Source: a virus (taxonomy: Duplodnaviria; Heunggongvirae; Uroviricota; Caudoviricetes). Taken from it: a DNA stretch of 64,000 nucleotides. This document shows, piece by piece, positions 179 to 34,911 of this stretch; the stretch's first letter is position 1; every line of letters begins with the position of its first letter. Position numbers and translations under genes: made by a program. Below the pieces are notes generated by a model. It did not search any database and was not told where the DNA came from. It was given only the letters and a program-made list of their open reading frames with translations. The stretch lies in the IMG/VR virus record IMGVR_UViG_3300045988_009603; one strand, given 5' to 3'.

Positions 179-964
179 TTAGTTCTTTGCGTCTAAGAAG
201 GTAACTTCCGGTGAAGAGAAGACCGTCTCGATATCCTCATCAGTTCTTGCATAGATATATGTATCTGCATCACTACCAAACGTTACAGCTATCCTGTGAT
301 TGCTCTTCGACAGGTGGGTAACTAGAGCGTTACTTAGAGACATCTTCTCAACCGGAGGGTTACTTTGATGTATCTTACCTTTTCTTCGTCTGAAGAGGGT
401 AACTGCATCCTCTGTGAACGTTACTACACCTGCAAAGTATTCTGGTTCACAGTAGTTATTCCAACCTGAGCGTAACTTGTGGTACATCTCTCCTTCGTAG
501 ACATACAGATAAACATCTACACTCTTCATCACCTGATTAATGATAACTGTGACGGCTTGAGGGTCTAGCCCACCGATACCTGCACCAATCATAGGTAACC
601 CAACTTTCTTCAACTGATTAACTTCACAGTATCTGTTAAGCTGTTTCAAAGATGACTCTAAAGCACTGTATCTGGCATCTTTACCAGTCTTAAGCTGAGT
701 GTAAAGATTAGCTATACGACCTTGTTTTAAACGTGCTACAGAGAAATTACCTAGTAAATTTTCACAGGGTTTGTGACCTATACCACCTGCATACAGATAA
801 ACTTCTGTATCAGTCTCATATGCTTTTGGGTAAAGTTTAGAAATCTTGTCAGCGATACCTGCACCCATTAAGTTCATACAGTTGCAACCGTGACCAATAA
901 TATCAAACTTACCTTTATCAAATGCGTCAAAGATATCACCTTTGATGATTTTTACAATACCCAT
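179..964 (-). CDS. TARG1-like macro domain protein (ADP-ribose processing) with unassigned C-terminal extension
   Basis: N-terminal ~155 aa carry macro-domain signatures KGDIF, GHGCNCMNLMGAGIA and LPMIGAGIGGLD, collinear with TARG1/OARD1-type macro domains; C-terminal ~100 aa unassigned. Confidence 0.55.
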   Translation of the reverse strand: MGIVKIIKGDIFDAFDKGKFDIIGHGCNCMNLMGAGIADKISKLYPKAYETDTEVYLYAGGIGHKPCENLLGNFSVARLKQGRIANLYTQLKTGKDARYSALESSLKQLNRYCEVNQLKKVGLPMIGAGIGGLDPQAVTVIINQVMKSVDVYLYVYEGEMYHKLRSGWNNYCEPEYFAGVVTFTEDAVTLFRRRKGKIHQSNPPVEKMSLSNALVTHLSKSNHRIAVTFGSDADTYIYARTDEDIETVFSSPEVTFLDAKN

Positions 965-2994: not shown

Positions 2995-3690
2995 TCAATG
3001 TTTAACTAACATGGTTTTAATGTGTGGAAGGATTCTGTTTACCTTCTGAACATTCTTCTCTGTATCTTCTATAAAGCATACTATATTAAAGTAAGGAAGA
3101 ATGCAAGACTGAATCATCCTAACTTTTAAACTTTCTGCACTTATAGAGTTAGTTCCAAAACCACGCATGAAAAGCATGTAATCATGCTCTATGTTATGCC
3201 TTAAAAACATCTCAGTAGGTATTCTCTGAGATTCACCTCTTGCTGTCAAGAGTCCAATGGCAGCATGATTAGCAATTGCATCAATAATACTAAAAACATA
3301 CGTTGGTTTTGCTCTTACAGAGTCAAGAAGATTAGTGTACTGTGAGAATGACCCATCAGTCAATTCCGTTGAGCAATCTTCGTGATTAAAATTTGTAAGA
3401 ACACCATCAATATCTGCTAAGATGAGGTTACCTTTTTCTACAAGGTCTTTATTGACTATGACTAAACTGTCACGTCTTACACCTACAGTTTGTCCAGTCT
3501 CTTTGTCCACAACGTTCACAATTGGTTGTGATGTGTGGAACTCTTCAAGTGAACATACAACTTCTCTTGCAGTGTCTTCAAAATCCCTGCACTGTTCTGG
3601 AGTCCATATACAGGAATCAAGACCTAACTCATGAGGATGCAAGTCGTAAGCATGACACAGTACTTCATCAGACTTTCTTAATTTTTTCAT
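2995..3690 (-). CDS. HAD-superfamily phosphatase-like protein (possible nucleotidase)
   Basis: Motif LILADIDGVLTNF (DxDG HAD motif I) and downstream GLLTARGE; N-terminal ~90 aa unassigned. Confidence 0.4.
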   Translation of the reverse strand: MKKLRKSDEVLCHAYDLHPHELGLDSCIWTPEQCRDFEDTAREVVCSLEEFHTSQPIVNVVDKETGQTVGVRRDSLVIVNKDLVEKGNLILADIDGVLTNFNHEDCSTELTDGSFSQYTNLLDSVRAKPTYVFSIIDAIANHAAIGLLTARGESQRIPTEMFLRHNIEHDYMLFMRGFGTNSISAESLKVRMIQSCILPYFNIVCFIEDTEKNVQKVNRILPHIKTMLVKH

Positions 3691-4216
3691 GATTTACCTT
3701 AGAAATGTTTGTTGCAAATTCACATTGAGCAATGACTTTCATATTGTTATAGACATCTTGAGAGTATTTCTTAGCTTTAGGGATTTTGTACGAATACCCA
3801 GCATTATATGATGCTAAAACTTTTTGTAAAGTCTTCTTTGACTTTGGTTGACCGTGTACCTTAGTCCAAAATTCAAGCTCTTTGTGTGTTTCCTTTGCAG
3901 CATAGTCAAAATCTTTTAAGAGTTTCTTTTTAGCCACATTAGGACTAATTTTGTTACGCTTTACAACAGTCTTCAAGTGATTCTGGAAAATACCATAGTC
4001 ATGGGTCTTTTTATTCTCTACCTTCAGACCTAACTCTGACTCTTGTAAGGCTATAGCAGCTAGAGTAATACCCCAACCTTTACCCATATTATTCTCACCA
4101 TACTGGTAAGCTTTTAACATGTTTACTTTTTGGCTAATTGATAGCTCTGGGCAGTCAACTGCATAAGATAAGTGTGCTGTAAACATTAAGCACAAACCTA
4201 GAATCAACTTCTTCAT
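3668..4216 (-). CDS. lytic transglycosylase (SLT domain) with N-terminal signal sequence; candidate endolysin
   Basis: Hydrophobic N-terminus MKKLILGLCLMFTAHLSYA; SLT motifs QESELG (catalytic Glu-Ser), GIFQ and YNAGYSY. Confidence 0.55.
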   Translation of the reverse strand: MKKLILGLCLMFTAHLSYAVDCPELSISQKVNMLKAYQYGENNMGKGWGITLAAIALQESELGLKVENKKTHDYGIFQNHLKTVVKRNKISPNVAKKKLLKDFDYAAKETHKELEFWTKVHGQPKSKKTLQKVLASYNAGYSYKIPKAKKYSQDVYNNMKVIAQCEFATNISKVNHEKIKKV

Positions 4217-4278
4217 TGGTTCTCCTGTTTAGTTTATCGTGACAACAATTATACAGCACTCTACACAAAATACAAATA

Positions 4279-4304
4279 AAAAAAGGCCGCCGAAGCAGCC
4301 TTTT
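4279..4304. terminator. bidirectional hairpin terminator
   Basis: GGCCGC-CGAA-GCAGCC stem-loop flanked by A-run and T-run, between lytic enzyme gene and rIIB-like gene. Confidence 0.4.
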
Positions 4305-4317
4305 AAGAAATTACTTA

Positions 4318-5427
4318 TTAGATTTCACGTTTACGTTGAGAAATGAGTTCACCAGCAGTACCAACGATGACATGCAAAGCTTCAGTCTTACCATCCCACG
4401 CTTTCAGCACTTTACGCTGATTATCAACGATTGCTGCAACTTCATAACGGGATGAACGCATCTTCATATCGTTGTAATCAGTTGGAACAGATACAACATC
4501 TCGTGGATGGACACGAACCTTCAGGATTGTATCACCTGAGAAGCAACGAACATAATCCCAAGCACCAACATGAAGACCCTGAGAGCAAGTTACGTTACGG
4601 TTGTTATCAACCATCCAACGTGGCATTTCTACAATATTACCTAAATCATTAGGTACTTTATAGGTGTGGGAGTCAACCAACTTGCCTTCACGAGTAGAGA
4701 CTTTCTTCCAACCAATGATGTAACCTTCTTCATCAATTTCAACATCAAGGTGAGATACGAATCCCCAAAGTTGTTCTACAGAATCTTTAGATGGGTTTTC
4801 CATCAGTTTTTCGAAGAACATTACAAGTCGTTCAAAACCTTTATCACCAGTCTTCATCATGTGAAGAATACGGTCAACCAGAGTAGAACGCATCTCAACA
4901 GCACCGTAGAATAACTTGTCACCTTTGATTGTGATAGCACCCTGAGTGAAGTTTTCGATAGACTTACGAATGTTCATCAGTTCAAAAGCTTTCTTGTACT
5001 CACCACCTACAACAGCCATTACGATTTCTTTGTAGTTTGGATGGGTAGACTCAACGATTTCAGAATCTGCACCGAAAGTCATGATAACAGAATCGCCAGT
5101 AATCATATACTCAATCTGGTTACCATTCTGCATAGCTTCGTGTAGTTTATTTACTGGAGCTTCCTGTACAGCCTCTTTAACAACCTTTTCAACTGGTTTT
5201 CCAGCTTTCTTTTTAACTGATTTAGCAACTTGCTTCAAAGTCTTCGTAGCTGGTTTAGAAGCTACCTTTTTCTTACCTTTTAAGGTTGCTTCATGACGCT
5301 CTACAGCACGACCAACTGAACGGGTTGAAGTATTGAACTTCTGTGCAATAGCTGTTTTAGTCAGCTTACCTTCTTTCACCAGTTCGTAAATTTCTGCGTC
5401 AATCTGTGCTTTAGTTTTAATAGTCAT
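4318..5427 (-). CDS. rIIB: rIIB-like protein
   Basis: Call rests on position immediately downstream of the rIIA-like gene and similar size; no diagnostic motif recognised. Confidence 0.4.
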   Translation of the reverse strand: MTIKTKAQIDAEIYELVKEGKLTKTAIAQKFNTSTRSVGRAVERHEATLKGKKKVASKPATKTLKQVAKSVKKKAGKPVEKVVKEAVQEAPVNKLHEAMQNGNQIEYMITGDSVIMTFGADSEIVESTHPNYKEIVMAVVGGEYKKAFELMNIRKSIENFTQGAITIKGDKLFYGAVEMRSTLVDRILHMMKTGDKGFERLVMFFEKLMENPSKDSVEQLWGFVSHLDVEIDEEGYIIGWKKVSTREGKLVDSHTYKVPNDLGNIVEMPRWMVDNNRNVTCSQGLHVGAWDYVRCFSGDTILKVRVHPRDVVSVPTDYNDMKMRSSRYEVAAIVDNQRKVLKAWDGKTEALHVIVGTAGELISQRKREI

Positions 5428-8762: not shown

Positions 8763-8783
8763 AAAAAGGCTCCCGTAGGAGCC
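8763..8783 (-). terminator. intrinsic terminator (GGCTCC-CGTA-GGAGCC)
   Basis: Hairpin plus A-run on plus strand, immediately downstream of the nadV-like gene. Confidence 0.5.
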
Positions 8784-8798
8784 TCTTATCATATACTT

Positions 8799-10580
8799 TT
8801 AAAGCTGCTTGTCAATATTATTTCGAATATCACCAAGAGATGTGTAACCGAACTGCTCAGAGTCACTAAAGACTAAACGTAAAGCACAAGCTGGATGTTC
8901 AAGCACATCTGCAAAGCTCTGGAATCCATAGCCATCTACAGCTTGCAGCTTATCACCATCCCACATAGGTGCTACACCACCAAAAGCAGACTTCTTAACA
9001 CCACTATCTGTTTTAGGGTCTTTTGCAAGCATAATCTCTTTACCGCCAATGCTTGCAAGAGTTGCTTTGACAGCAAATGCAAAGGTGTCACGAGTCATGT
9101 ACTGGTAAGTGTAAGAACCTACACCAAACACTACGTTAGAGCTTGCAAAACCCATTTCATACAAACGCTTCAAGATTTCGTTTGCACGTTCCAACGTGAT
9201 AGAGTCACCATAAATAAGTCCGATGTGCTCATCCAGTACTTTAAAACCTTTAGAGTTGATAGTTCCCCCAAAGATGTTATACAGTGTCTTGATAGCTCCA
9301 TCAATCTCTGCTACAGGACGTGTTACAACGTTTGCAGAACCAACCATATAAGCGTTTTTCAACATCACTGTATCAGCAACTTCAAAGTCTTCTCTGTCAA
9401 CAACCATTTCGTAGCCTTCTGACAGTAGCCACCCAGCAATACCATAGTTGATGTTTTCAAGCTTCATGTTCAGAACAGCATTCAACATTGTGTCGCTGGC
9501 TTCCAGCTTGCTTAGGTGTTCGTAATAAGATTTTTTAGCGCACTCTAAATGGATTGCTTTGTATCCTGTGACAATATGTACAGGGTCTCCAGAGTCAGGA
9601 CGGATTACCAGTTTACCATCACGTTCCATAATCTCTTTACGAAGTGCTGGTAAGATTTCTGATACAGTTCTCCAGAAATTATAAGTGTCTGAAACAACAC
9701 TTGCAATACCAGTTGGGTAAGTTTCTGTTAAGAAACGACGGAAGGTTTGTAACTCACCTTTAAAGCGTCTTTCTTCTTCAACCAACTCGTTACCACCTTC
9801 CCAAGCAATGTTTGCACACATTACAGAGTGTTCAGTGGCTGGTACAGAACCACCAATATCAGAGATTGGGTAAGATTGTCCGTAGATGCGTTTAGCTGTA
9901 TATACAGCAGGGAAGCTATCAGTCCCTTTAAAGCTGGTTAAGTGGCCTACAGCGTTAAATGCGTCATCGGTAAAGCCAGACATACCACGCATAGCAAAGT
10001 CATGGCACTGATAAGGTAAATGCAAGGTATTGTCGCAAGTAAGGTCAGCCCACTTCTTACAGATACGTTTGTAGTGCAATGCAATAGTTGCAATGGTACA
10101 AGCCTTCCAAATCTCAGCAGAGAAAGCATCTTCAAGATACCCCGCTACCCAATGGAAACCTGAAACAGTGTTCTGGAAGATAATCATTGGTACACGCATA
10201 GGGACAACTGTGCCTTCTTCTACAGCGTATACTTCAACTGGTAGATAACCTAAGTCGTGAAGTGCTTCCCAATGTTCTCGACCAATAGCATCTTTACCCA
10301 GAACACCGTTCATGACTTCTAAGATTTCGTCAATTGCTTCTTTTTTGTCACGTTCAAAGAAAGTGGCGTTCCAATGGTCTATCAAGTAATCTTTAACGAA
10401 ACGTTGAATACCAAAAGCCACTACACCGTCAATTGCTAAAGGACTGTTAAACCATTTATCACTACGTGGTGTCAGGTTCAACATAAGATATTGCGTAGCA
10501 TCTGGATACTGATATACATGTGATGCCTTGTAAGCATCTGCATTAAGACCTGCTGGTACTGCATAAAGTGATTTAGTCAT
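8799..10580 (-). CDS. nadV: nicotinamide phosphoribosyltransferase (NAMPT/NadV)
   Basis: 593 aa; length and overall conservation typical of NAMPT family; adjacent to prs. Confidence 0.75.
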   Translation of the reverse strand: MTKSLYAVPAGLNADAYKASHVYQYPDATQYLMLNLTPRSDKWFNSPLAIDGVVAFGIQRFVKDYLIDHWNATFFERDKKEAIDEILEVMNGVLGKDAIGREHWEALHDLGYLPVEVYAVEEGTVVPMRVPMIIFQNTVSGFHWVAGYLEDAFSAEIWKACTIATIALHYKRICKKWADLTCDNTLHLPYQCHDFAMRGMSGFTDDAFNAVGHLTSFKGTDSFPAVYTAKRIYGQSYPISDIGGSVPATEHSVMCANIAWEGGNELVEEERRFKGELQTFRRFLTETYPTGIASVVSDTYNFWRTVSEILPALRKEIMERDGKLVIRPDSGDPVHIVTGYKAIHLECAKKSYYEHLSKLEASDTMLNAVLNMKLENINYGIAGWLLSEGYEMVVDREDFEVADTVMLKNAYMVGSANVVTRPVAEIDGAIKTLYNIFGGTINSKGFKVLDEHIGLIYGDSITLERANEILKRLYEMGFASSNVVFGVGSYTYQYMTRDTFAFAVKATLASIGGKEIMLAKDPKTDSGVKKSAFGGVAPMWDGDKLQAVDGYGFQSFADVLEHPACALRLVFSDSEQFGYTSLGDIRNNIDKQL

Positions 10581-10589
10581 CTTTTAATC

Positions 10590-10618
10590 TCTCTCAAAAT
10601 GGGGCTTGAAAGCCCCCT
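10590..10618 (-). terminator. hairpin terminator downstream of prs
   Basis: GGGGCT-TGAA-AGCCCC stem-loop followed by U-rich tract on minus strand. Confidence 0.35.
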
Positions 10619-10626
10619 ATAAAGTT

Positions 10627-11526
10627 TTAATCAAGGTTTGCTACAGTAACTTGACCATAATGTGTTAAACCACGGTCTTTAGCTTCCCCTAAAGAGTTTG
10701 TAGTGTAGATGTGGTCAATACCATTGTCAAGAAGGTTTTCAACCCCTTTAGAGAAGATACCATGTGTTACATAGAGTTCCACACGTTTTGCACCTGCTTC
10801 ACGAAGATGTTTAGCTGCTTCTATGAAGGTTCGACCGCCATCACAGATGTCGTCGAGAATCATAACAGTTTTATCGGTCAAATCAACATCATCAAGGATT
10901 CGCATACCAGTAATTTCACCAGTTTTGAGGTTACGTACTTTAGACATTGTGATGTATGGCTTATCCACCTCTTTAGCAGTTTCTGCAATCTTCTTAGAAG
11001 CACCTGCATCTGGGGCTACTAAGTAATCAACCAGTGGGTCATTTGCATAGTGGACTGCAATTTCATTTTGAGGAATACTTTGGAAGCAGTTAAACAGGTT
11101 ATCTGGTACATAACTGTGAGGGTCAACTGCACAGACTGCACCAAACCCCATTGCATTGACCTGTTTAGCAAAAACCTTTAAAGCTGCTGCATCACCTTTA
11201 AACATGTGACGGTCATATCGTGCATTTGGTAAGTAGTAAAAAATGACAGTCTTTAAGGCATAGTCATGAGGGACTAAATCATCAATTGCTTCTTTAGCAA
11301 GTGCCACAGCAAACAATGTGTCCTTGTCATAACCTTTCACAATAATAATCACATTGTTGATAGACGATGCTGCATAAGCAGTAAAATCAACAAGCTCTTG
11401 TGAAAAATGTCCACCAATCTCACCAGAAGGGAATTGGATGATGTTAAACTCTTCTTCATGAGTTCCTTTAGTCGGTGAATGAACTGTAACACGGATAGAT
11501 GTTTTCATAGTTTCTCTCTTAGTCAA
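10627..11526 (-). CDS. prs: ribose-phosphate pyrophosphokinase (PRPP synthetase)
   Basis: 299 aa; PRPP-binding loop VMILDDICDGGRTF; typical Prs length. Confidence 0.75.
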   Translation of the reverse strand: MTKRETMKTSIRVTVHSPTKGTHEEEFNIIQFPSGEIGGHFSQELVDFTAYAASSINNVIIIVKGYDKDTLFAVALAKEAIDDLVPHDYALKTVIFYYLPNARYDRHMFKGDAAALKVFAKQVNAMGFGAVCAVDPHSYVPDNLFNCFQSIPQNEIAVHYANDPLVDYLVAPDAGASKKIAETAKEVDKPYITMSKVRNLKTGEITGMRILDDVDLTDKTVMILDDICDGGRTFIEAAKHLREAGAKRVELYVTHGIFSKGVENLLDNGIDHIYTTNSLGEAKDRGLTHYGQVTVANLD

Positions 11527-11797
11527 AAGTTACGTTTGTTACTGCCATTGCAGATTTGCATTTTGCAGGGTCTACAACGTGATAAAGTACACTACAGTTA
11601 CCTGTGCTGTCTGGTACAGGCTTTACCCATTGATGCTTTATAGTTGGCTCTCCTAAGTCTTTGTAAGAACCATCTGTAAAGTTGTTTACCATCTCAAGTG
11701 CAATTGGTTCTGGAACATGACCACGTATCATGTACATCTCACAACCATTACCACCTTCACTGACTAATGGTAAAATCTCCCACTTTTCTTTAGCCAT
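11519..11797 (-). CDS. hypothetical protein
   Basis: 92 aa ORF. Confidence 0.35.
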   Translation of the reverse strand: MAKEKWEILPLVSEGGNGCEMYMIRGHVPEPIALEMVNNFTDGSYKDLGEPTIKHQWVKPVPDSTGNCSVLYHVVDPAKCKSAMAVTNVTFD

Positions 11798-12305
11798 TGT
11801 AAGTTGCCCTATAAACTGTCTCGAACTTCAACAGGAGAGATATTGCCAAATCTGTATAGTTGTTGTCAAGCACATCTGGCATATTATTTTTGATATATTT
11901 CTCTTGCTCTTCATAGGTCATCTTAGGGGTGCTTAAAAGATTATCCCCTTGCTTCTGGTTATCAAGTTTAGTCTGGATAAACCAGTTTGCACAGTGGTGC
12001 TCACCACCCTTTGTAACAGGTTTGTGGTGGCCTAATGTGAAGGATTGACTACCTGTATATCTGCAAAGTTTATTGAGTACTGTAATGGTGTTCTTCACAA
12101 CAAAACATTCATACAGGTTGTCTATGGTGTAGTATGGGTAATATCGGAATAATACTCTTTCACGAGTACTCTCACGATTCCAGAGAATCATGTGATTGGA
12201 GTTGGAAGGGTCATATTGGTGGGAGTCAATGAACTCTTGACGTTCCTCAAAGCTGAGCCTTAACACTGACATTGCAGCCGAACGTTTCAGGTTTGACAGG
12301 TACAT
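11790..12305 (-). CDS. hypothetical protein with HNH-like His-rich motif
   Basis: LGHHKPVTKGGEHHCANW resembles the HH..P..GG..N core of HNH nucleases; weak. Confidence 0.3.
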   Translation of the reverse strand: MYLSNLKRSAAMSVLRLSFEERQEFIDSHQYDPSNSNHMILWNRESTRERVLFRYYPYYTIDNLYECFVVKNTITVLNKLCRYTGSQSFTLGHHKPVTKGGEHHCANWFIQTKLDNQKQGDNLLSTPKMTYEEQEKYIKNNMPDVLDNNYTDLAISLLLKFETVYRATYNG

Positions 12306-14759: not shown

Positions 14760-15317
14760 TTATTTTTTCTTACAATTGTCAAAATGATATCGAGTCATGT
14801 TACCAGCACCACCAGTCATACCACAATGAGGGCAAGTTTTCTTTTTCTTTGGCTTTTTTCCGGCTTCTGACATCTTCTTCCTTGTTTCTATAGACCTTTT
14901 ACAACCTTTTGATTTTGTATTGCCTATTTGAGATTCTCCTAACCGTCTTCGATGTTCTTCAGTGAAAACCCTACCTTTATTCACAATAGATAGAGCTTTC
15001 GAGTTCAAAGCCCTTACCTTTTCATAGTCTCTGGATGATATTTTCCTATCTAGGCCATCATGGGCTAACCTGTTCCATGCAAACCATAACTTATGATTGT
15101 TTGGATACATCTTAACCAGTAATTTATGAGCTATATAATGCTCTCTAGGTGTAAGTAAAGCAATATTATCTCCACTAATTTTATCGCCACCTAGACATAC
15201 TGGTGTGATATGGTGTCTTTCATAACCCTTACCTTGACATTTGTAGTATGTAAGAGGCACACCCCTTTCAGAATGTGCCTTCTTAATAATTGCATTATAT
15301 ATTAGTTCGTAATTCAT
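14760..15317 (-). CDS. free-standing HNH homing endonuclease
   Basis: HNH core ERHHITPVCLGGDKISGDNIALLTPREHYIAH; Lys-rich C-terminus with CPHCG; alternative start at 15368 overlaps nrdD 3' end. Confidence 0.6.
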   Translation of the reverse strand: MNYELIYNAIIKKAHSERGVPLTYYKCQGKGYERHHITPVCLGGDKISGDNIALLTPREHYIAHKLLVKMYPNNHKLWFAWNRLAHDGLDRKISSRDYEKVRALNSKALSIVNKGRVFTEEHRRRLGESQIGNTKSKGCKRSIETRKKMSEAGKKPKKKKTCPHCGMTGGAGNMTRYHFDNCKKK

Positions 15318-15324
15318 TTGTATG

Positions 15325-16272
15325 CTACATAGAAACCCTATCCTTAATTTCTGCCATCTTAGCGTCATTCATTCGAGACTGACCTTTAATTTTTGTGAAT
15401 GACAAGTACCCGCACACCCTGTTAATCACAGAGATGTCATGTGAATGGCAAACCTCACATTCTTCAACATCAGCCTTTGGTCTGTTACCACAATGTTCAC
15501 AGATTGCTAAGTCAAAGTTAAGTCCCTGATAGAAGCCTTTCAACATCCCTCTTGTAATACAACTTTTAAGTGCTGGTAAGTTTTCTGGGTTAGCTACCCT
15601 TACATACTGGATTCTGCCACCTCTACAAATATGGAAGAATGGTTCTTCTAAGTCCTGCTTCTCAAATGGTGAGATATCTGCTGCAACATTCATATGAAAA
15701 CTGTTTGTAAAGTATTCCTTATCAGAAACACCTTTGATAACGCCAAACATATCTCTGAACTGTTTTAGTTGAGTCCCACAAAGTGATTCTGCTGGAGTAC
15801 CATATACCGCATATAAGAAGCCATCTTCATTCTTAAACTCTTCAGTTTTCATGTTAATGTATGCCAGAACATCGTATGCAAAACTACAGCTTCCAACTTC
15901 ATGAAGTCGTTTACCCTCAGCAAGAACAGATAACTCATCAAGCGCAGTAACACCAAAAGAAGCTGTGAAAGACTTCACAATATCCCAGCCAACCTTGTCA
16001 GTAGGTTTCTTAGTCCCTTTGTACAGACCACCTTGTGTGAATGCAAGAGGGTTAGAGCTTGCTGGCATATTAGCAATCATTTCGTAGCGTTTCTTGTGGA
16101 AGCTGCGAATCATCTCTAGGTACTTATCAAGCTCTTTCCAGAAATCTAAGCCATTCTCTTTAGAATACTGGTAAATCATTGGTAAGTTCAAAGATACAGC
16201 ACCAATGTTAGCACGACCTACATAAAACTCTTCACCATCTTCGTTATGGTATGGTGATAAAAACGCTCTACA
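15325..16272 (-). CDS. nrdD: anaerobic ribonucleoside-triphosphate reductase, exon 2
   Basis: Glycyl-radical motif RVCGYLS and C-terminal Zn site CEHCGN...CEVCH; frame is open upstream of the tracked start back to the proposed 3' splice site. Confidence 0.7.
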   Translation of the reverse strand, partial: CRAFLSPYHNEDGEEFYVGRANIGAVSLNLPMIYQYSKENGLDFWKELDKYLEMIRSFHKKRYEMIANMPASSNPLAFTQGGLYKGTKKPTDKVGWDIVKSFTASFGVTALDELSVLAEGKRLHEVGSCSFAYDVLAYINMKTEEFKNEDGFLYAVYGTPAESLCGTQLKQFRDMFGVIKGVSDKEYFTNSFHMNVAADISPFEKQDLEEPFFHICRGGRIQYVRVANPENLPALKSCITRGMLKGFYQGLNFDLAICEHCGNRPKADVEECEVCHSHDISVINRVCGYLSFTKIKGQSRMNDAKMAEIKDRVSM

Positions 16273-17014
16273 CTTGTTGTTCAGGTAAGTTCGCTACGCT
16301 TACCCCGCTTTATTCAAGCTGCTTACTGTCACCAGTAAGTCCAGACTATATCTTCTACTTATTTCTAAGTAGCGTACCATTTCGAGTCGCTTGACCCTAC
16401 ACCGCTACATTCATCACGGTTAGTCGTTTGGCATTTAGATGTACTCAAATTCATGTTCAAAGTTATTATATTCTTTTACACCCTTCAGTATTGAAGAGAT
16501 AGTCTTGCGATTATACCCAAGTATCTTGGATAACTCTCGTATCGAGTTCGCAACAATAACTTCTTTTGTTACTTTGTGTGTAGCCTTCACAGCATATGAA
16601 CGCTTACAAAACTTGTAGCAACCATTCTCATAACCTTCTTTAACATTCTCAGAATGAGTTCCCCATTCTAAGTTAGAAGCATGGTTATTCAGTTTGTTGT
16701 CATCTTTGTGTTTTACAATTGGAAGATTGTTCGGGTTAGGTACATATTTCTCAGCAACTAACCTATGAACATACATGTCACGATTCTTCTTACCGTAAAA
16801 CCTCACTTTCATATACCCAGTGTTGGATTTCCACTGCTTAAGTTCTACACCATTTTTCCTAAAGACTCTTCCATCTTCAGTAACATGATAATTTGGCATG
16901 TAATACTCCTATGTTATATAGTTTCTTACATCGTACATCATTTAGCACAGGATTGTCTACATCTGTAGAGTTTCCCTGTTTAGGCACGTTTTAGATGAGC
17001 TATAGAGCTTGTTA
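16273..17014 (-). mobile_element. group I intron in nrdD carrying an HNH endonuclease ORF
   Basis: Minus-strand P-like (AAACAGGGAAAC), Q-like (AATCCTGTG), S-like (AGATATAGTC) elements; P1 pairing exon ATGGGT with intron GCTCAT giving U.G at the 5' splice site; intron ends in G; spliced junction reads ...ISPMG|CRAFLSPY... Confidence 0.65.
16435..16899 (-). CDS. intron-encoded HNH-type homing endonuclease
   Basis: Motif HRLVAEKYVPNPNNLPIVKHKDDNKLNNHASNLEWGTHSEN; located between intron Q and R elements. Confidence 0.65.
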   Translation of the reverse strand: MPNYHVTEDGRVFRKNGVELKQWKSNTGYMKVRFYGKKNRDMYVHRLVAEKYVPNPNNLPIVKHKDDNKLNNHASNLEWGTHSENVKEGYENGCYKFCKRSYAVKATHKVTKEVIVANSIRELSKILGYNRKTISSILKGVKEYNNFEHEFEYI

Positions 17015-18211
17015 ACCCATCGGTGAAATTACCTTGCCAGAACGCTCAAAAGCCTCTGCTACAGCACCATGACCAGATACACTTAAGAAATCTGGATACA
17101 TAGCTTTAGAGCAACACTCTATAGCTTTTTCAAACAACCTTGCTTGGCATACATCAAGCTTATGTCTTGTCTCTTCATAGATATACACAAGTTTAGGGAA
17201 CACCACAGGTTTTTTGCTTTTACCTTGCCCATTCATTCTTACATTAAGAATTGTATTAGCAATCATAAACTGAAGACGGTTATCTTCATTGTGCATATCT
17301 GGTTCCAGCAAACCAAATGTCAGAGTAGTAAATGCAAAATCACCGCGACTGCAAGGAACAGTGTTAAGTTTCATTTCAAGAGATTGGAAACCCTGTGTTA
17401 ACTCATTCTGTAGTTGTTCCATTACGTAATTATAGTGTTGCTCTTTAGGGATTCCGTACTCTTCAGCTTTCTCTGAATGGTACACTAAAGACTTCTTAGC
17501 ATACGGTACAAGCACCTTATCAATCTCTGCTAAAGTAAATCCACCAAATTGCTGTGCAGTTGCTGAAAGAACTACATCACCAATAACCTGTAAGGCTGAC
17601 AGCACAGACTTTGGTTCACAGTATTCAATGCCAGACATTTCAAAGCCACCTTTTAGTACTTTACCAATGTCAAACAGGCAACAGTTGATACCACCAAAAA
17701 TTAGGTCTCTTAAGTCATGGATGTAGATAAATCCTTTTTCAATGGCTTCAAGTTCCTCTGGTGTTAAATGGTACTGTTTAAAGATTTCTTTAGTCAGGTA
17801 ACCACGAATAATTGAACCTTTTGTAGAAATTAAACTGCTGTCAAAGTTAGCATTTTCACGGTCACCTAAGAAGAGTGTGTCTTTAGTCTTCTGGTAAAGC
17901 TCATCCCAATTTTGAGCAACCTCTTTACGGTAATTTCTATATGTTGAGTAAGACTCATAAATCTCGTGATTTACTTCTGCCAAAGCACCCTCAACAATGC
18001 TGTGAATATCGTTTACTGAGATGAGCAAATTATTCTGCTTAGTGGACTTTACCAGAATCCTCATAAATGCTGATTCAAGAGCTTGGGTAACATCTGGTGG
18101 CAGTTCTTTATATCCAACCCTGTTAGCTGACTTAGTTACTGCTGCTAAAACTTTTTTGATATCCGGTTCTTCAAGTGAGCCATTCTTTTTAATAATTTGT
18201 ACTTTGTTCAT
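17015..18211 (-). CDS. nrdD: anaerobic ribonucleoside-triphosphate reductase, exon 1
   Basis: 399 aa ORF read as the N-terminal part of NrdD; its tracked stop lies inside the intron. Confidence 0.7.
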
Positions 18212-31151: not shown

Positions 31152-31407
31152 GTAAGCCTCTTTTAAGTAACTATTAAGTTTTAATCTTTTATCTTAACGT
31201 ATTCTATACGTTATACTTTAAAGCTTTTTAAAAGCTATTAAATAATCTTTTAAGAGTTTTAAAGTAACTGTATAGTTAAACTGTTAAGTAACCTTTTAAG
31301 TAAAAACCCACTTCGCAAAGATTAACACCTTGTCAAGTACATTGTCAACTTGCTTTTTATAATTTTTTGCAGTAATGTATGAGGTTAATGAATTAGAGGG
31401 AGTACAA

Positions 31408-33550
31408 ATGGAAAACGTAGATTTTAAAAACTTACACTTAGTTGGTGATACAGAAACTGATGGTTTACTCCTTGAGTTCACTAAAGTCCACGTCATGGCT
31501 TTCGCAGACTATAAATCTGACGATGAAGAGCCACCTGTATGGGTCTTTACAGATGAGCCTATCCTCGGTCACAAGTATACCAAGTACATTAAAGGTGGTT
31601 TGCGTGAAGGTATTGAGTTTGCGTTAAAGGCAAAACGGCTTTGCATCCATAATGGTCTGGGGTATGACTGGTGGGTTTTCAATCACATTGCACCTGATTT
31701 GTGGAACTTTGATAATCCAAAGTGTAAGCCGTGGAGTAATTTCTTTCAGGATTCTCTTATCCAGTCTCGTGTTCAGTGGATGGATAGACCAACTCCAAAA
31801 GGCTATAAAGGTGCTCATGGCTTGGCAGCATGGGGTGCTCGTGTTGGTGTACGTAAACCAGAGATTGAACATTGGGGTGTGTGGAATGCAGAAATCTTCA
31901 CTCGTGTTGTAGAGGATATCCGTATTAACGCCAAAACTAAACGAGCACTGGATAATGAATATCTCAAGTTAAAGAAGTGTGGTATAGACACTTATGAAAC
32001 CTATATGCGAGCTAAAGAGACATCTTTCTGGATGAGTCAACAAGCTATTAATGGTTGGAAAGCTGATAAGGAGCTTATGGAGTTCCATGTAAAGGAACTT
32101 GACAAGTTGACTAATGAGCTTGCTTCAGAAGTTGAACCACACCTTCCACCAACTATTAAGACCAAAGGTAAAGTCACTGGAGAAGAGTTTGCAAAAGCTT
32201 GGAATGAGTATGTTGAAGCGTTTGGTCATGCAGATGGACTGAAAAGAATTACCAAGTACCCTAAGACAAAGTATCGTCAGCAGGTACGTAACGGTGAGAT
32301 GCAGACATATGAAATCAAGCCATTTGGTAAGCCAACTACAAAGATTTTTAACATTGAAAAGCGGAATTGCTATACACCAACCAACACTGTAACTGGCGAA
32401 GAGTACAAAGAAGGTTTTGTAGCAATGAAGGATGCTCGTGCAATTTGCAATGAGTTGAATGCAAAGATTGGTAAGAAATGCAAAGACTGGAAGCCAGTAA
32501 AAACAGTCAAAACTGTGAAGTACTATAACAGTCACGTTGTTAACCACTTTGAACTTGAGTCAAGTCGCTACACAGGATTGATTGATGCACCATATACACC
32601 AATTGAGTTTGAAGTTTCTCGTATGACTCAGGTAGCAGTTGTTAAAGACTACTTGAAATCAGTTGGTTGGATTCCAGATGACTGGAACTACAAGAAAGAC
32701 TCAGACGGTCGCCCTGTCAAAGTTTGTCGTTTCAAAGACAATAAAAAGATGATTACAAAGCATCCTAAGTGGCAGGAGATGGTTGAGCGTTGTGGATTGA
32801 GCTATGTTGAACATGAAGGTGTACAGTACATTGAGCATAACTGGTCTGTGAAGAAGTACACAGATTTGCTTGAACCTTGTCTGATTAGGACTTCACCAAA
32901 ACTTACTGAATCATCTTATGATACGATTGAAGGTGAGCTTGGACAGAAGATTGCTAAGTACTACACTTTGATGCACCGACGCAGAACTATTGAGAACTCA
33001 AAGGATGATGAAAAAGGTTGGTTGAACCAGATTCGTCCTGATGGTCGCCTTAGTGCTGGCGCAATGGTGTTTGGTACTTCAACTGGACGTATGACACAAT
33101 ATGGTATTGTAAACGTACCGTCTGGCGCTGCTGTCTATGGAGCACCCATGAGGGAAGTTTGGACTTGTGAAGAGGGTACTAATATTGTTTCAGCCGACAT
33201 GAATAGCGCCCAACTTGTGCTACTGTGTAACTTTATGGGTGATAAAGATTTCACTAAAGCGGTGACAGAGGGTAAAGAAGAGGTTGAGTTTGTTAAACAA
33301 GATGATGGTAGATACTATTGCAAACATTTTGACCAGTATCTAAACCCAGCTATTGACAAGTATTTACATTATGATTCGGAAAATGACTTATACGTGGTGT
33401 ACTCAGGGACTGATGCACATACTTTAAATAGTATCTACTTCAGTCTTAATAAAGAGGAAGACATCTTGACGTGTCGAGCTACTCAGGATACAAATCTTCT
33501 TCAAGAAATTAGTAAAGGTCGTAAGAAAGCCAAAAATGGCATTTATGCGT
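31408..33550 (+). CDS. DNA polymerase (family A), exon 1
   Basis: GAGGGAG RBS before ATG 31408; 3'-5' exo motif VGDTETDGL; motif A IVSADMNSAQL; start of motif B RKKAKNGIYA; exon end set by intron P1 pairing. Confidence 0.75.
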
Positions 33551-34354
33551 CAGTGGCGCATGTAAAACGTTGTGAATTGCTGGAAGCCTAAGTCTGTAAA
33601 GATATGGTAATCAGCAGCGAAGTCTCTGTTAGGACTCCTAAAACAAAGGAGAGAGAGACAATGGCAGGTTACGAAGAGAGATTATGCACTGAGTGTGGCA
33701 CGGAGTTTAAACCATACCAATACAATCAGAAACGGTGCAGAAGCTGTGTATTAAAATTTGACAGAAGGGCAGAACACAGGGTTCTTACTAAGAAATGCCC
33801 TAGCTGCGAGAAGGTGTTCATGCCGAGAACAGCAAGGCAAGTTTATTGCTCTTCACATTGCGGTGAGAAAGGTAGAGTTAAAAATTACTACCTAAGAACA
33901 TATGGCTTGGAAAGGGAAGAGGTTGAAGCTCTACTCCGCAACTGTGATTACAAATGTCAAATTTGTGGCGGTGAAGGTTTTATCATGAATGGTTCACGAC
34001 ACAAGGCTAAACTTGTTGTTGACCATGACCACAAAACCGGAAAGGTAAGAGGTATGCTATGCCACAATTGCAACAGAGCTTTGGGGTTGCTTGCAGATAG
34101 CGTTGATAATATGCAAAGAGCAATTGACTACCTAAGCAAATAATATAATTGTAGAGATTCCTAACAGAGAAACGTTCAGAGACTATCGAAAAGCATACTT
34201 AACGTATGAACTGAGTAGAGTAGGGTGGTAAGCTAATGACCATCCCCAAGTGCAACGGTAGCACCAATGCTACGTGATATAGTCCGACACTCCGTAGAAA
34301 TGCGGAGAAGTTCATAAGAGAACTGGTACACCTTGCGAGTGTATTGACCAGATG
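33551..34354 (+). mobile_element. group I intron in DNA polymerase gene with HNH endonuclease ORF
   Basis: P (GAATTGCTGGAA 33574-85), Q (AATCAGCAGC 33609-18), R (GTTCAGAGACTA 34174-85), S (GATATAGTCC 34276-85); P1 exon ATGCGT pairs intron GCGCAT; ends in G 34354; exon lengths sum to 2700 nt. Confidence 0.75.
33661..34143 (+). CDS. intron-encoded HNH endonuclease
   Basis: AAGGAGAGAG RBS; Cys-rich N-terminus; VVDHDHKTGKVRGMLCHNCNRALG HNH core. Confidence 0.7.
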   Translation: MAGYEERLCTECGTEFKPYQYNQKRCRSCVLKFDRRAEHRVLTKKCPSCEKVFMPRTARQVYCSSHCGEKGRVKNYYLRTYGLEREEVEALLRNCDYKCQICGGEGFIMNGSRHKAKLVVDHDHKTGKVRGMLCHNCNRALGLLADSVDNMQRAIDYLSK

Positions 34355-34911
34355 TATTGTTCGGGGCTGGCGATGAGAAATTTGCTAAGACGATTAAAGC
34401 ATCTACAACTGAGGAAGGTGCTTTAACTAAGCAAACATACTTTGTACGCCTCCCTAAAATTAAGAAGTTGATAGATGATTTAGAAGCAGACTTCAAAGCC
34501 ACTAAGAAGGCTCTTGAAGAGGTATTTGGTAAGACTGCTGCAATCTCTAAAGGGGGGTTTGTAAAGGTTGCTGGAGCTTGGTTGTGGTGCAAATCTCCAC
34601 ATAAGTTATTGAATTATTTGCTCATGGGTTCGGAAAGTCAGGTTCAGAATGAAGCCATCAACCTTGCTTGTAGAAGAACTTGTGAAGAAGGTCTTACAAA
34701 GTTGAATGGTCGAAAACCAGCTATTGGTGCTAGATTGCTTTTGGCATATCACGATGAGAATAGTTGGGAGTGTCCAGAAGACATGACGCAGGATGTTAAA
34801 GCAGTAATTGACTGGATGTATGGTCAAGCATCAAGAAATTTAGGGCTTAAGGAGGAAACTCTTGTAACTGGCACTGGTAAAGTTGGTAAAAATTGGCTTG
34901 AGGTACACTGA
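34355..34911 (+). CDS. DNA polymerase (family A), exon 2
   Basis: Completes motif B (LFGAGDEKFAKTI) and carries motif C YHDE; tracked ORF at 34357 begins on a TTG, not an independent gene. Confidence 0.75.

Follow-up and report, generated by a model that had tools for sequence, protein, structure and literature searches.

The 64,000-nucleotide stretch of DNA analysed here (the window) comes from a virus of the class Caudoviricetes (IMG/VR record IMGVR_UViG_3300045988_009603). On its minus strand lie two neighbouring genes that very probably form a NARP1 operon: one encodes Adps, an ADP-ribose (ADPR)-pyrophosphate synthetase, and the other encodes Namat, a nicotinamide ADPR-transferase. Together they would rebuild nicotinamide adenine dinucleotide (NAD+) directly from ADPR and nicotinamide. 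In the proposed route, a NADase-type defence with SIR2, TIR, or SEFIR effectors would cleave NAD+ into ADP-ribose and nicotinamide. Adps would then pyrophosphorylate ADPR at its terminal ribose, taking the beta-gamma pyrophosphate from ATP and yielding ADPR-pyrophosphate (ADPR-PP) and AMP, and Namat would replace the pyrophosphate of ADPR-PP with nicotinamide to give NAD+ directly. Neither phosphoribosyl pyrophosphate (PRPP), nicotinamide mononucleotide (NMN), nor an NMN adenylyltransferase (Nmnat) would take part. Because the substrates are the cleavage products themselves, NARP1 is expected to be active only after host-triggered NAD+ depletion. The feature is already known, since it is a near-identical member of an experimentally founded NARP1 family. 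Orthology, synteny, conserved catalytic and specificity residues, and the absence of an Nmnat argue that the window proteins share the activities of that family.

The names Adps, Namat, and NARP1 come from Osterman et al. (10.1101/2024.02.11.579819), who discovered NARP1 in an operon of Escherichia phage JohannRWettstein (Bas63). Their starting hypothesis for Bas63 genes 79-80 was that Prs supplies PRPP, from which Nampt forms NMN, with NAD+ then completed by host enzymes; the same study refuted it (10.1101/2024.02.11.579819). Deletion of the two genes resulted in ~20-fold fewer plaques on SIR2-HerA cells and in deeper NAD+ depletion, while wild-type Bas63 still beat SIR2-HerA in a pncC nadR deletion host (10.1101/2024.02.11.579819). 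Because counter-defence persists in that host, dependence on host conversion of NMN to NAD+ is refuted. Untargeted metabolomics revealed ADPR-PP (m/z 720.010) only in defence-expressing cells infected with wild-type Bas63 (10.1101/2024.02.11.579819). In vitro, SPbetaL1 Adps converted ADPR and ATP to ADPR-PP and gave no product in a PRPP-synthetase test; SPbetaL1 Namat converted ADPR-PP and nicotinamide to NAD+, and with PRPP and ADPR-PP supplied together its sole product was NAD+ (10.1101/2024.02.11.579819). The activities have been shown in vivo for Bas63 and in vitro for SPbetaL1, ICP1, and DyoEdafos, with structures from SPbetaL1 and ICP1 homologs; the defences that NARP1 has proved able to overcome are SIR2-HerA/Nezha, DSR2, type I Thoeris, Kongming, and SPARSA. 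As originally defined, NARP1 is an Adps-clade Prs homolog and a Namat-clade Nampt homolog within 10 genes of each other. NARP2 is a separate route, known from Vibrio phage KVP40, that pairs a Nampt with an Nmnat.

An earlier reading of the window from its letters alone (the sequence-only reading) had named the pair nadV and prs and proposed that it rebuilds NAD+ after NAD-depleting immunity. This role is borne out through the deletion phenotype of the orthologous Bas63 operon; the deletion experiment that the reading proposed as a check has in effect already been done, on this congeneric phage. The chemistry it gave, from ribose-5-phosphate (R5P), ATP, and nicotinamide to NMN, does not hold: the Bas63-type pair uses ADPR-PP and makes NAD+ directly. 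Its NARP2 label was likewise misplaced, as a Prs-like plus a Nampt-like protein is the composition of NARP1.

The namat gene (8799..10580, minus strand) is an open reading frame (ORF) of 593 aa with an ATG start, and adps (10627..11508, minus strand) encodes 293 aa. The ORF list confirms them as adjacent and co-directional, with a 46-nt spacer between. The outer end of the pair had been put at 11526, which is correct for the maximal ORF (10627..11526, 299 aa, TTG start). However, the adps start is most likely ATG 11508, and TTG 11526 would be merely the start of the maximal ORF, because the purine-rich, ribosome-binding-site-like AAGAGAGAAA sits just upstream of this ATG and 293 aa is the length annotated for the Prs-like protein in Bas63 and other relatives. 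The G+C content at the pair locus (0.40) is like that of the rest of the window.

In Pfam, the Namat ORF matches NAPRTase (E 6e-35) and NAMPT_N, and the Adps ORF matches Pribosyltran and Pribosyl_synth; in NCBIfam, the best matches are NF006629 (E 3e-141) and TIGR01251 (E 1.6e-34), respectively. On these matches the superfamily labels "Nampt-like" and "Prs-like" are correct, far beyond chance. To that extent the names nadV and prs stand; the functions they imply, Nampt and PRPP synthetase, do not, since the Bas63 orthologs are Namat and Adps. NCBIfam, PHROGs, and Pfam hold no Adps- or Namat-specific model, and matches there carry generic names only. Canonical E. coli Prs and the Nampts (human, Xanthomonas, and H. 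ducreyi NadV) have the same folds and core catalytic residues as the window pair, which is why annotation pipelines name the pair Prs/Nampt. They differ in substrates, R5P and PRPP against ADPR and ADPR-PP for NARP1, and the Nampts are without the aromatic clamp residues described below.

The 2.7-kb stretch of the pair matches 258 phage records, nearly all of them Felixounavirus-type phages of Escherichia, Salmonella, and Shigella, with a best nucleotide identity of 95.8%. In 219 of these the match covers at least 80% of its length, and there the pair is kept as a unit. From such matches we identify the window as a fragment of a Felixounavirus genome. Bas63 itself (MZ501086) is among the matching records. 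Its gene order runs nrdG, three small ORFs, gp77 (171 aa), gp78 (92 aa), gp79 (293 aa, annotated "ribose-phosphate pyrophosphokinase"), gp80 (593 aa, annotated "nicotinamide phosphoribosyltransferase"), gp81 (114 aa), rIIA (788 aa), and rIIB; read on the minus strand, the window has the same order. Near-identical proteins occur in other sequenced phages, with Adps at 99.3% identity in Seyj1-1 and Namat at 98-99%. The published table of Adps homologs flags those of Seyj1-1 and adrianh as Namat-associated, and the Felixounavirus entries of the published Namat table (adrianh, JohannRWettstein, and FelixO1) are "Adps-associated", not "Nmnat-associated".

Among characterized systems, Bas63 NARP1 is matched in genus, gene order, flanking genes, protein lengths (293/593 aa), clamp residues, the inserted Namat subdomain, the mapped Adps catalytic residues, the spacer hairpin, and the flanking terminator-like hairpins. 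It differs from the window in carrying another allele of the Adps N-terminus (~170 residues) and in 18 Namat substitutions.

Window Namat and Bas63 gp80 agree at 575 of 593 residues (97.0%), and the 18 substitutions all lie outside the mapped functional residues. By phmmer, it scores 1343 bits against Bas63, 431 against SPbetaL1 Namat, and 324-372 against other operon-linked Namats, compared with 178 bits for Xanthomonas (Xcc) Nampt, 173 for a KVP40-type Nampt, and ~146 for mammalian Nampt. The closest true Nampt in the PDB is H. ducreyi NadV (354 bits). For residue mapping, reference numbering was checked first: 20 of 20 SPbetaL1 Namat residues and 13 of 13 ICP1 Adps (F1D1Q1) residues fitted the fetched sequences. 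The catalytic core of SPbetaL1 Namat (D13, Y15, F189, R192, D215, R306, and D308) is conserved in the window as D15, Y17, F195, R198, D221, R327, and D329.

Selectivity for ADPR-PP has been ascribed to a clamp with a helix and a loop, and the consensus of its helix has been published (PMC12774641). The selectivity-clamp helix (SCH) of window Namat, GSYTYQYMTRD (aa 488-498; 9087..9119, minus strand), is identical in Bas63 and fits GS-X-phi-X-phi-X-phi-TRD, with adenine-stacking aromatics at positions 3 and 7. At this place true Nampts have GGGLLQQLDRD (KVP40-type) or GAQTYQRNTRD (H. ducreyi NadV), without the clamp signature, so that even NadV, with its 354 bits the closest relative that forms NMN, is told apart by the motif. 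The aromatic clamp motif is present in all 29 Namat homologs aligned from a large protein database. The selectivity-clamp loop (SCL) supplies an adenine-stacking residue, either Arg at position 3 or the residue that follows a Lys or Tyr there (PMC12774641); where this position is a Lys, stacking on adenine falls to the residue after it, "e.g. Bas63 Namat" (PMC12774641). The window has the pair K42-W43 (10452..10457, minus strand) within PRSDKW, the same as in Bas63.

An AlphaFold2 model of window Namat (predicted local distance difference test, pLDDT, 92.4; predicted template modelling score, pTM, 0.91) finds 9W5X as its best Foldseek match, with a target-normalised TM of 0.95, ahead of H. ducreyi NadV (HdNadV) and the mammalian Nampts. 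The SPbetaL1 system (Adps WIT26982, Namat WIT26983; PDB 9W5W/9W5X, PMC12774641) shares with the window the two-gene order, the Namat core, the SCH type, and the Adps lysine, though identity is only 46% for Namat and 31% for Adps. Its SCL relies on Arg40 directly, that of the window on K42-W43. SPbetaL1 Namat is also shorter (491 aa), lacking insertions of ~85 aa and ~10 aa that window Namat has. The larger one is an alpha/beta subdomain at about aa 340-428 (9297..9563, minus strand), present in Bas63; a fold search with this subdomain gave nothing significant.

Two observations concern Namat homologs elsewhere. Chromosomes of enterobacteria (Klebsiella, Cronobacter, Kosakonia, and Phytobacter) encode 496-aa homologs with the clamp motif GS[FY]TYQYNTRD, annotated as nicotinate phosphoribosyltransferase; they are likely bacterial NARP1 copies, consistent with reported bacterial NARP1. 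In Vibrio phage ICP1 isolate 2017_Dha_AB, the Namat homolog (3353-4672) is annotated from an internal start, as 439 aa without the N-terminal ~55 residues that include the SCL and the D13/Y15 equivalents, and its clamp motif contains TCD in place of TRD. These oddities may reflect an annotation or frameshift issue.

Window Adps aligns with Bas63 gp79 over 293 residues with no gaps, at 78.5% identity. The identity is uneven: 66% over aa 1-110, 70% over aa 111-170, and 93.5% over aa 171-293. Bit scores are 516 for Bas63, 89-134 for other validated or operon-linked Adps, and 47 for E. coli Prs. Against PDB sequences Adps has matches only to Prs, at E 7e-18 or weaker; these sequences hold no Adps entry, and residues were therefore mapped through the ICP1 sequence (PMC13586617). 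In the window, K190 corresponds to the catalytic beta-hairpin lysine (ICP1 K185, SPbetaL1 K162), and the acceptor-groove residues R97, H131, D167, D219, D220, and D223 correspond to ICP1 R87, H121, D161, D212, D213, and D216. Despite the N-terminal divergence, the adenine-stacking phenylalanine is kept as F26, as are the other mapped residues. ICP1 Adps is 33% identical to the window protein and has the same Prs-like fold; window Adps carries ~13 extra C-terminal residues. Loss of the C-terminal alpha11-alpha12 filament and regulatory module of PRPS is the proposed signature of the Adps family (PMC13586617). In alignment, window Adps ends ...QVTVANLD, before E. coli Prs IRRISNEESISAMFEH, and so appears to be missing this module, as is ICP1 Adps.

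All in all, the window pair displays adjacency, the SCH, the SCL, the Namat core, the Adps lysine and acceptor groove, and, in alignment, the loss of alpha11-alpha12, features by which NARP1 is recognized.

The N-terminal divergence of Adps is not peculiar to the window. Felixounavirus has two alleles of this region (10999..11508, minus strand, aa 1-170), a window/Seyj1-1/adrianh type and a Bas63/FelixO1 type; the pattern suggests mosaic recombination or diversifying selection.

The model implied by the annotated names is that a canonical PRPP synthetase and a Nampt make NMN, and that NadR, or PncC followed by NadD/NadE, in the host or an unrecognised phage adenylyltransferase finishes NAD+, as in a NARP2-type pathway. 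It draws on the Prs and Nampt names in Pfam, NCBIfam, and PHROGs and on the score of the Prs-like protein, which is just above the cut-off of the broad TIGR01251 subfamily (119.3 vs 113). That protein nonetheless fails all the Prs equivalog and other subfamily cut-offs of NCBIfam (for example 104.8 vs 296 and 90.3 vs 297). We rejected a canonical PRPP synthetase on these failed thresholds, the missing regulatory C-terminal module, and an identity of 23% to E. coli Prs. Further evidence against the model comes from the relatives: the counter-defence of Bas63 outlasts the loss of pncC and nadR, the infection-specific metabolite is ADPR-PP, and the SPbetaL1 enzymes neither yield a product in the Prs assay nor make anything other than NAD+ from both donors. 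Window Namat, unlike true Nampts, also carries the ADPR-PP clamp. The model is already largely refuted, and we regard it as very improbable here.

The search for an Nmnat points the same way, as NARP2 is defined by Nampt and Nmnat. A published cloning primer served to recover the KVP40 Nmnat query, a 341-aa protein that has both an HNGH motif and a Nudix box. By tblastn, neither the window nor the full Bas63 genome yielded a match to it (best E 3.4; positive control 714 bits), with ~24 kb of the phage's own genome lying beyond the window. Pfam, run on 48 window ORFs, detected no cytidylyltransferase-like/NMNAT (CTP_transf_like), Nudix, NadR, PnuC, or RyR domain. The earlier remark that no NMN adenylyltransferase is found nearby therefore stands, and its proposed profile search of the flanking ORFs returns no adenylyltransferase and mainly PHROG families without known function. 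Its corollary, that the last step would rely on the host or on an unrecognised phage gene, falls away: because NARP1 needs no NMNAT, the missing enzyme is not a gap and a search for an adenylyltransferase is unnecessary.

NARP2 was rejected on this absence, on the similarity of Namat (31% identity and 173 bits to the KVP40-type Nampt vs 431 bits to SPbetaL1 Namat), and on the presence of the clamp. KVP40 NARP2 (NadV and the bifunctional Nmnat/Nudix protein NatV) resembles NARP1 in countering NADase defences with a Nampt-superfamily enzyme. However, it needs Nmnat, has no Adps, uses PRPP to make NMN, and forms NAD+ irrespective of prior depletion; its Nampt has no clamp. NARP3, a PnuC-like nicotinamide riboside transporter with a bifunctional NadR-like enzyme (PMC13464706), was rejected since neither PnuC nor NadR domains were found by Pfam in the scanned window ORFs.

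A different explanation is that the pair consists of auxiliary metabolic genes that raise nucleotide and NAD+ supply irrespective of immunity, rather than serving counter-defence. The genes around it are those of nucleotide metabolism (nrdA/B/D/G, deoxynucleoside monophosphate kinase, ThyA, and DHFR), and older literature annotated the pair as NAD salvage genes. Yet Bas63-infected cells without a defence system showed no ADPR-PP, the Bas63 deletion phenotype was scored on SIR2-HerA cells against empty-vector control cells, and the substrate ADPR is a product of NADase cleavage. We consider general metabolic boosting extremely improbable.

Several points weigh against assigning NARP1 to the window. 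The experiments were all performed on relatives, so that activity of the window's own sequence is predicted from theirs. Bas63 proteins "did not purify well" (10.1101/2024.02.11.579819), which is why the in vitro work used SPbetaL1; the homologs from which the enzymology stems are 31-46% identical. Of the Adps proteins with experimental data, that of Bas63 is the closest, and it is only 66-70% identical in the N-terminal half, the domain that supplies the adenine-stacking phenylalanine. Two ICP1 contact positions differ in window Adps, exactly as in Bas63: F92 is M102, and the PP loop AAS (A218-A219-S220) is GRT (G225-R226-T227). Membership of the Adps clade rests on the published tree and tables together with the ordering of scores. 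Finally, Namat retains PRPP-dependent NMN synthesis in vitro (PMC12774641), and because of this a minor NMN side-route using host PRPP may exist.

With NARP1 as the favoured reading, the Pfam-level names Prs and Nampt are seen to mislead: a real counter-defence module was detected and its mechanism mislabelled. The window phage is expected to evade NADase defences whose products are ADPR and nicotinamide, and to stay sensitive to defences that cleave NAD+ otherwise (for example aRES), unless a distal Macro-domain protein compensates. This pattern matters for predicting the host range of therapeutic Felixounavirus phages. For the NARP1 family itself, the window adds nothing new beyond one more near-identical member.

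That Macro-domain protein (179..964, minus strand; 261 aa; Pfam Macro PF01661, E 1e-7) is the ortholog of Bas63_0095 ("putative phosphatase", 97% identity) and a candidate ADPR-1''-phosphate phosphatase (Adpp-like). Its gene lies ~8 kb downstream of the pair, 15 genes away as counted in Bas63, and it is the sole Macro protein found in the window. The validated Adpp of Vibrio phage Gary, with which it was compared at motif level, is 27% identical, alignable over the whole Macro domain, and has common motifs. By BLASTP, it matches Cilsick gp173, which shares 98.7% identity with Gary Adpp, at E 2e-14, and an operon-linked Pakpunavirus ORF20 at E 2e-21. In Gary NARP1-AP (Adps-Adpp-Namat; 10.64898/2026.01.28.702374) the core Adps and Namat are common to the window, which also encodes a Macro protein of the same subfamily. 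In Gary, however, Adpp is in the operon, whereas the window Macro gene lies outside it and its product has an extra C-terminal region of ~105 aa.

Pfam and PHROGs revealed no in-operon accessory, neither a Macro Adpp nor a RyR-domain RyDEP, among the flanking ORFs. NARP1-AP by its strict definition, with a Macro gene within two genes, was accordingly rejected for the window: the flanking ORFs (three upstream of 82-171 aa, two downstream of 114-115 aa) are without a Macro match. The survey of NARP1-AP looked only within two genes of NARP1 and has no Felixounavirus in its table (10.64898/2026.01.28.702374). Tentatively, felixounaviruses could run NARP1-AP in trans, with the Macro protein turning ADPR-1''-phosphate from aRES-type RES defences into ADPR for Adps, a possibility that we judge rather unlikely. 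Were this so, the 15% given for NARP1-AP would be too low, and Bas63-like phages would be expected to resist aRES. The Macro protein matches 2854 phage records, T2 and other T4-like phages included, against 1413 for Adps; with Poa1p-like Macro genes so much commoner than NARP1, a dedicated NARP1 role for this protein is only a hypothesis.

The immediate surroundings of the pair suggest how it may be transcribed. Directly upstream of adps lies a 92-aa ORF (11519..11797, minus strand), the ortholog of Bas63 gp78, which matches phrog_4726 and has no Pfam match; its length leaves no room for an adenylyltransferase or a Macro domain. Next comes a 171-aa ORF (11790..12305, minus strand), the gp77 ortholog, which matches phrog_3500 and, weakly, phrog_2214 (HNH) and DUF7167. 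A 103-aa flanking ORF has only a Pfam match to DUF7390. Upstream of the 171-aa ORF, a consensus scan places a promoter-like site (12375-12347) followed by a hairpin with a T-run (12345-12325), all on the minus strand, and the hairpin is kept in Bas63. At the other end, directly after the namat stop, there is a terminator-like hairpin (8764..8787, minus strand; -16.6 kcal/mol), a 10-bp GC-rich stem followed by TTTTT, identical in Bas63; by its match to the consensus it is a putative terminator. A near-consensus promoter for the next genes overlaps this hairpin (8787-8764) in the consensus scan. These scans suggest a four-gene transcription unit of the gp77-like and gp78-like genes, adps, and namat, with correspondingly provisional boundaries.

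The 92-aa family is found only in Ounavirinae, where it stands upstream of adps in the loci examined. The four-gene arrangement also occurs in Erwinia phage M7 (Kolesnikvirus, Ounavirinae). A homolog of the 171-aa protein in a Phapecoctavirus is not near NARP1, and for this reason the linkage of the two small ORFs to the pair is probably inherited synteny. As NARP1 partners both were rejected, the 92-aa protein being confined to Ounavirinae and the 171-aa protein occurring away from NARP1.

The adps-namat spacer (10581..10626, minus strand, 46 nt) contains a GGGGCT-loop-AGCCCC hairpin (RNAfold, -12.7 kcal/mol) and GAGAGAG before the namat ATG. The hairpin stem is kept in Bas63, where the loop is different. 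The spacer is also the precise site where many relatives (FelixO1, vB_EcoM_D4, pinkbiff, skuden, and others) carry an HNH homing-endonuclease gene of ~490 nt; no such insertion interrupts it in the window.

Homing-endonuclease-like ORFs occur elsewhere in the window. One (14760..15368, minus strand) combines NUMOD3 with a colicin-DNase-like HNH domain, and another (16435..16899, minus strand) combines HNH_3 with NUMOD1; both adjoin or separate pieces of nrdD (split ORFs 15325..16191 and 17012..18211). The Bas63 annotation gives nrdD (anaerobic ribonucleotide reductase) as a joined CDS with a homing endonuclease between its parts. The family-A DNA polymerase also appears split, on the plus strand, into a 738-aa N-terminal ORF (31375..33591), an Endonuclease_7-type ORF (33604..34143), and a 184-aa ORF with the DNA_pol_A C-terminus (34357..34911); Bas63 has a single annotated 2730-nt polymerase with a homing endonuclease beside it.

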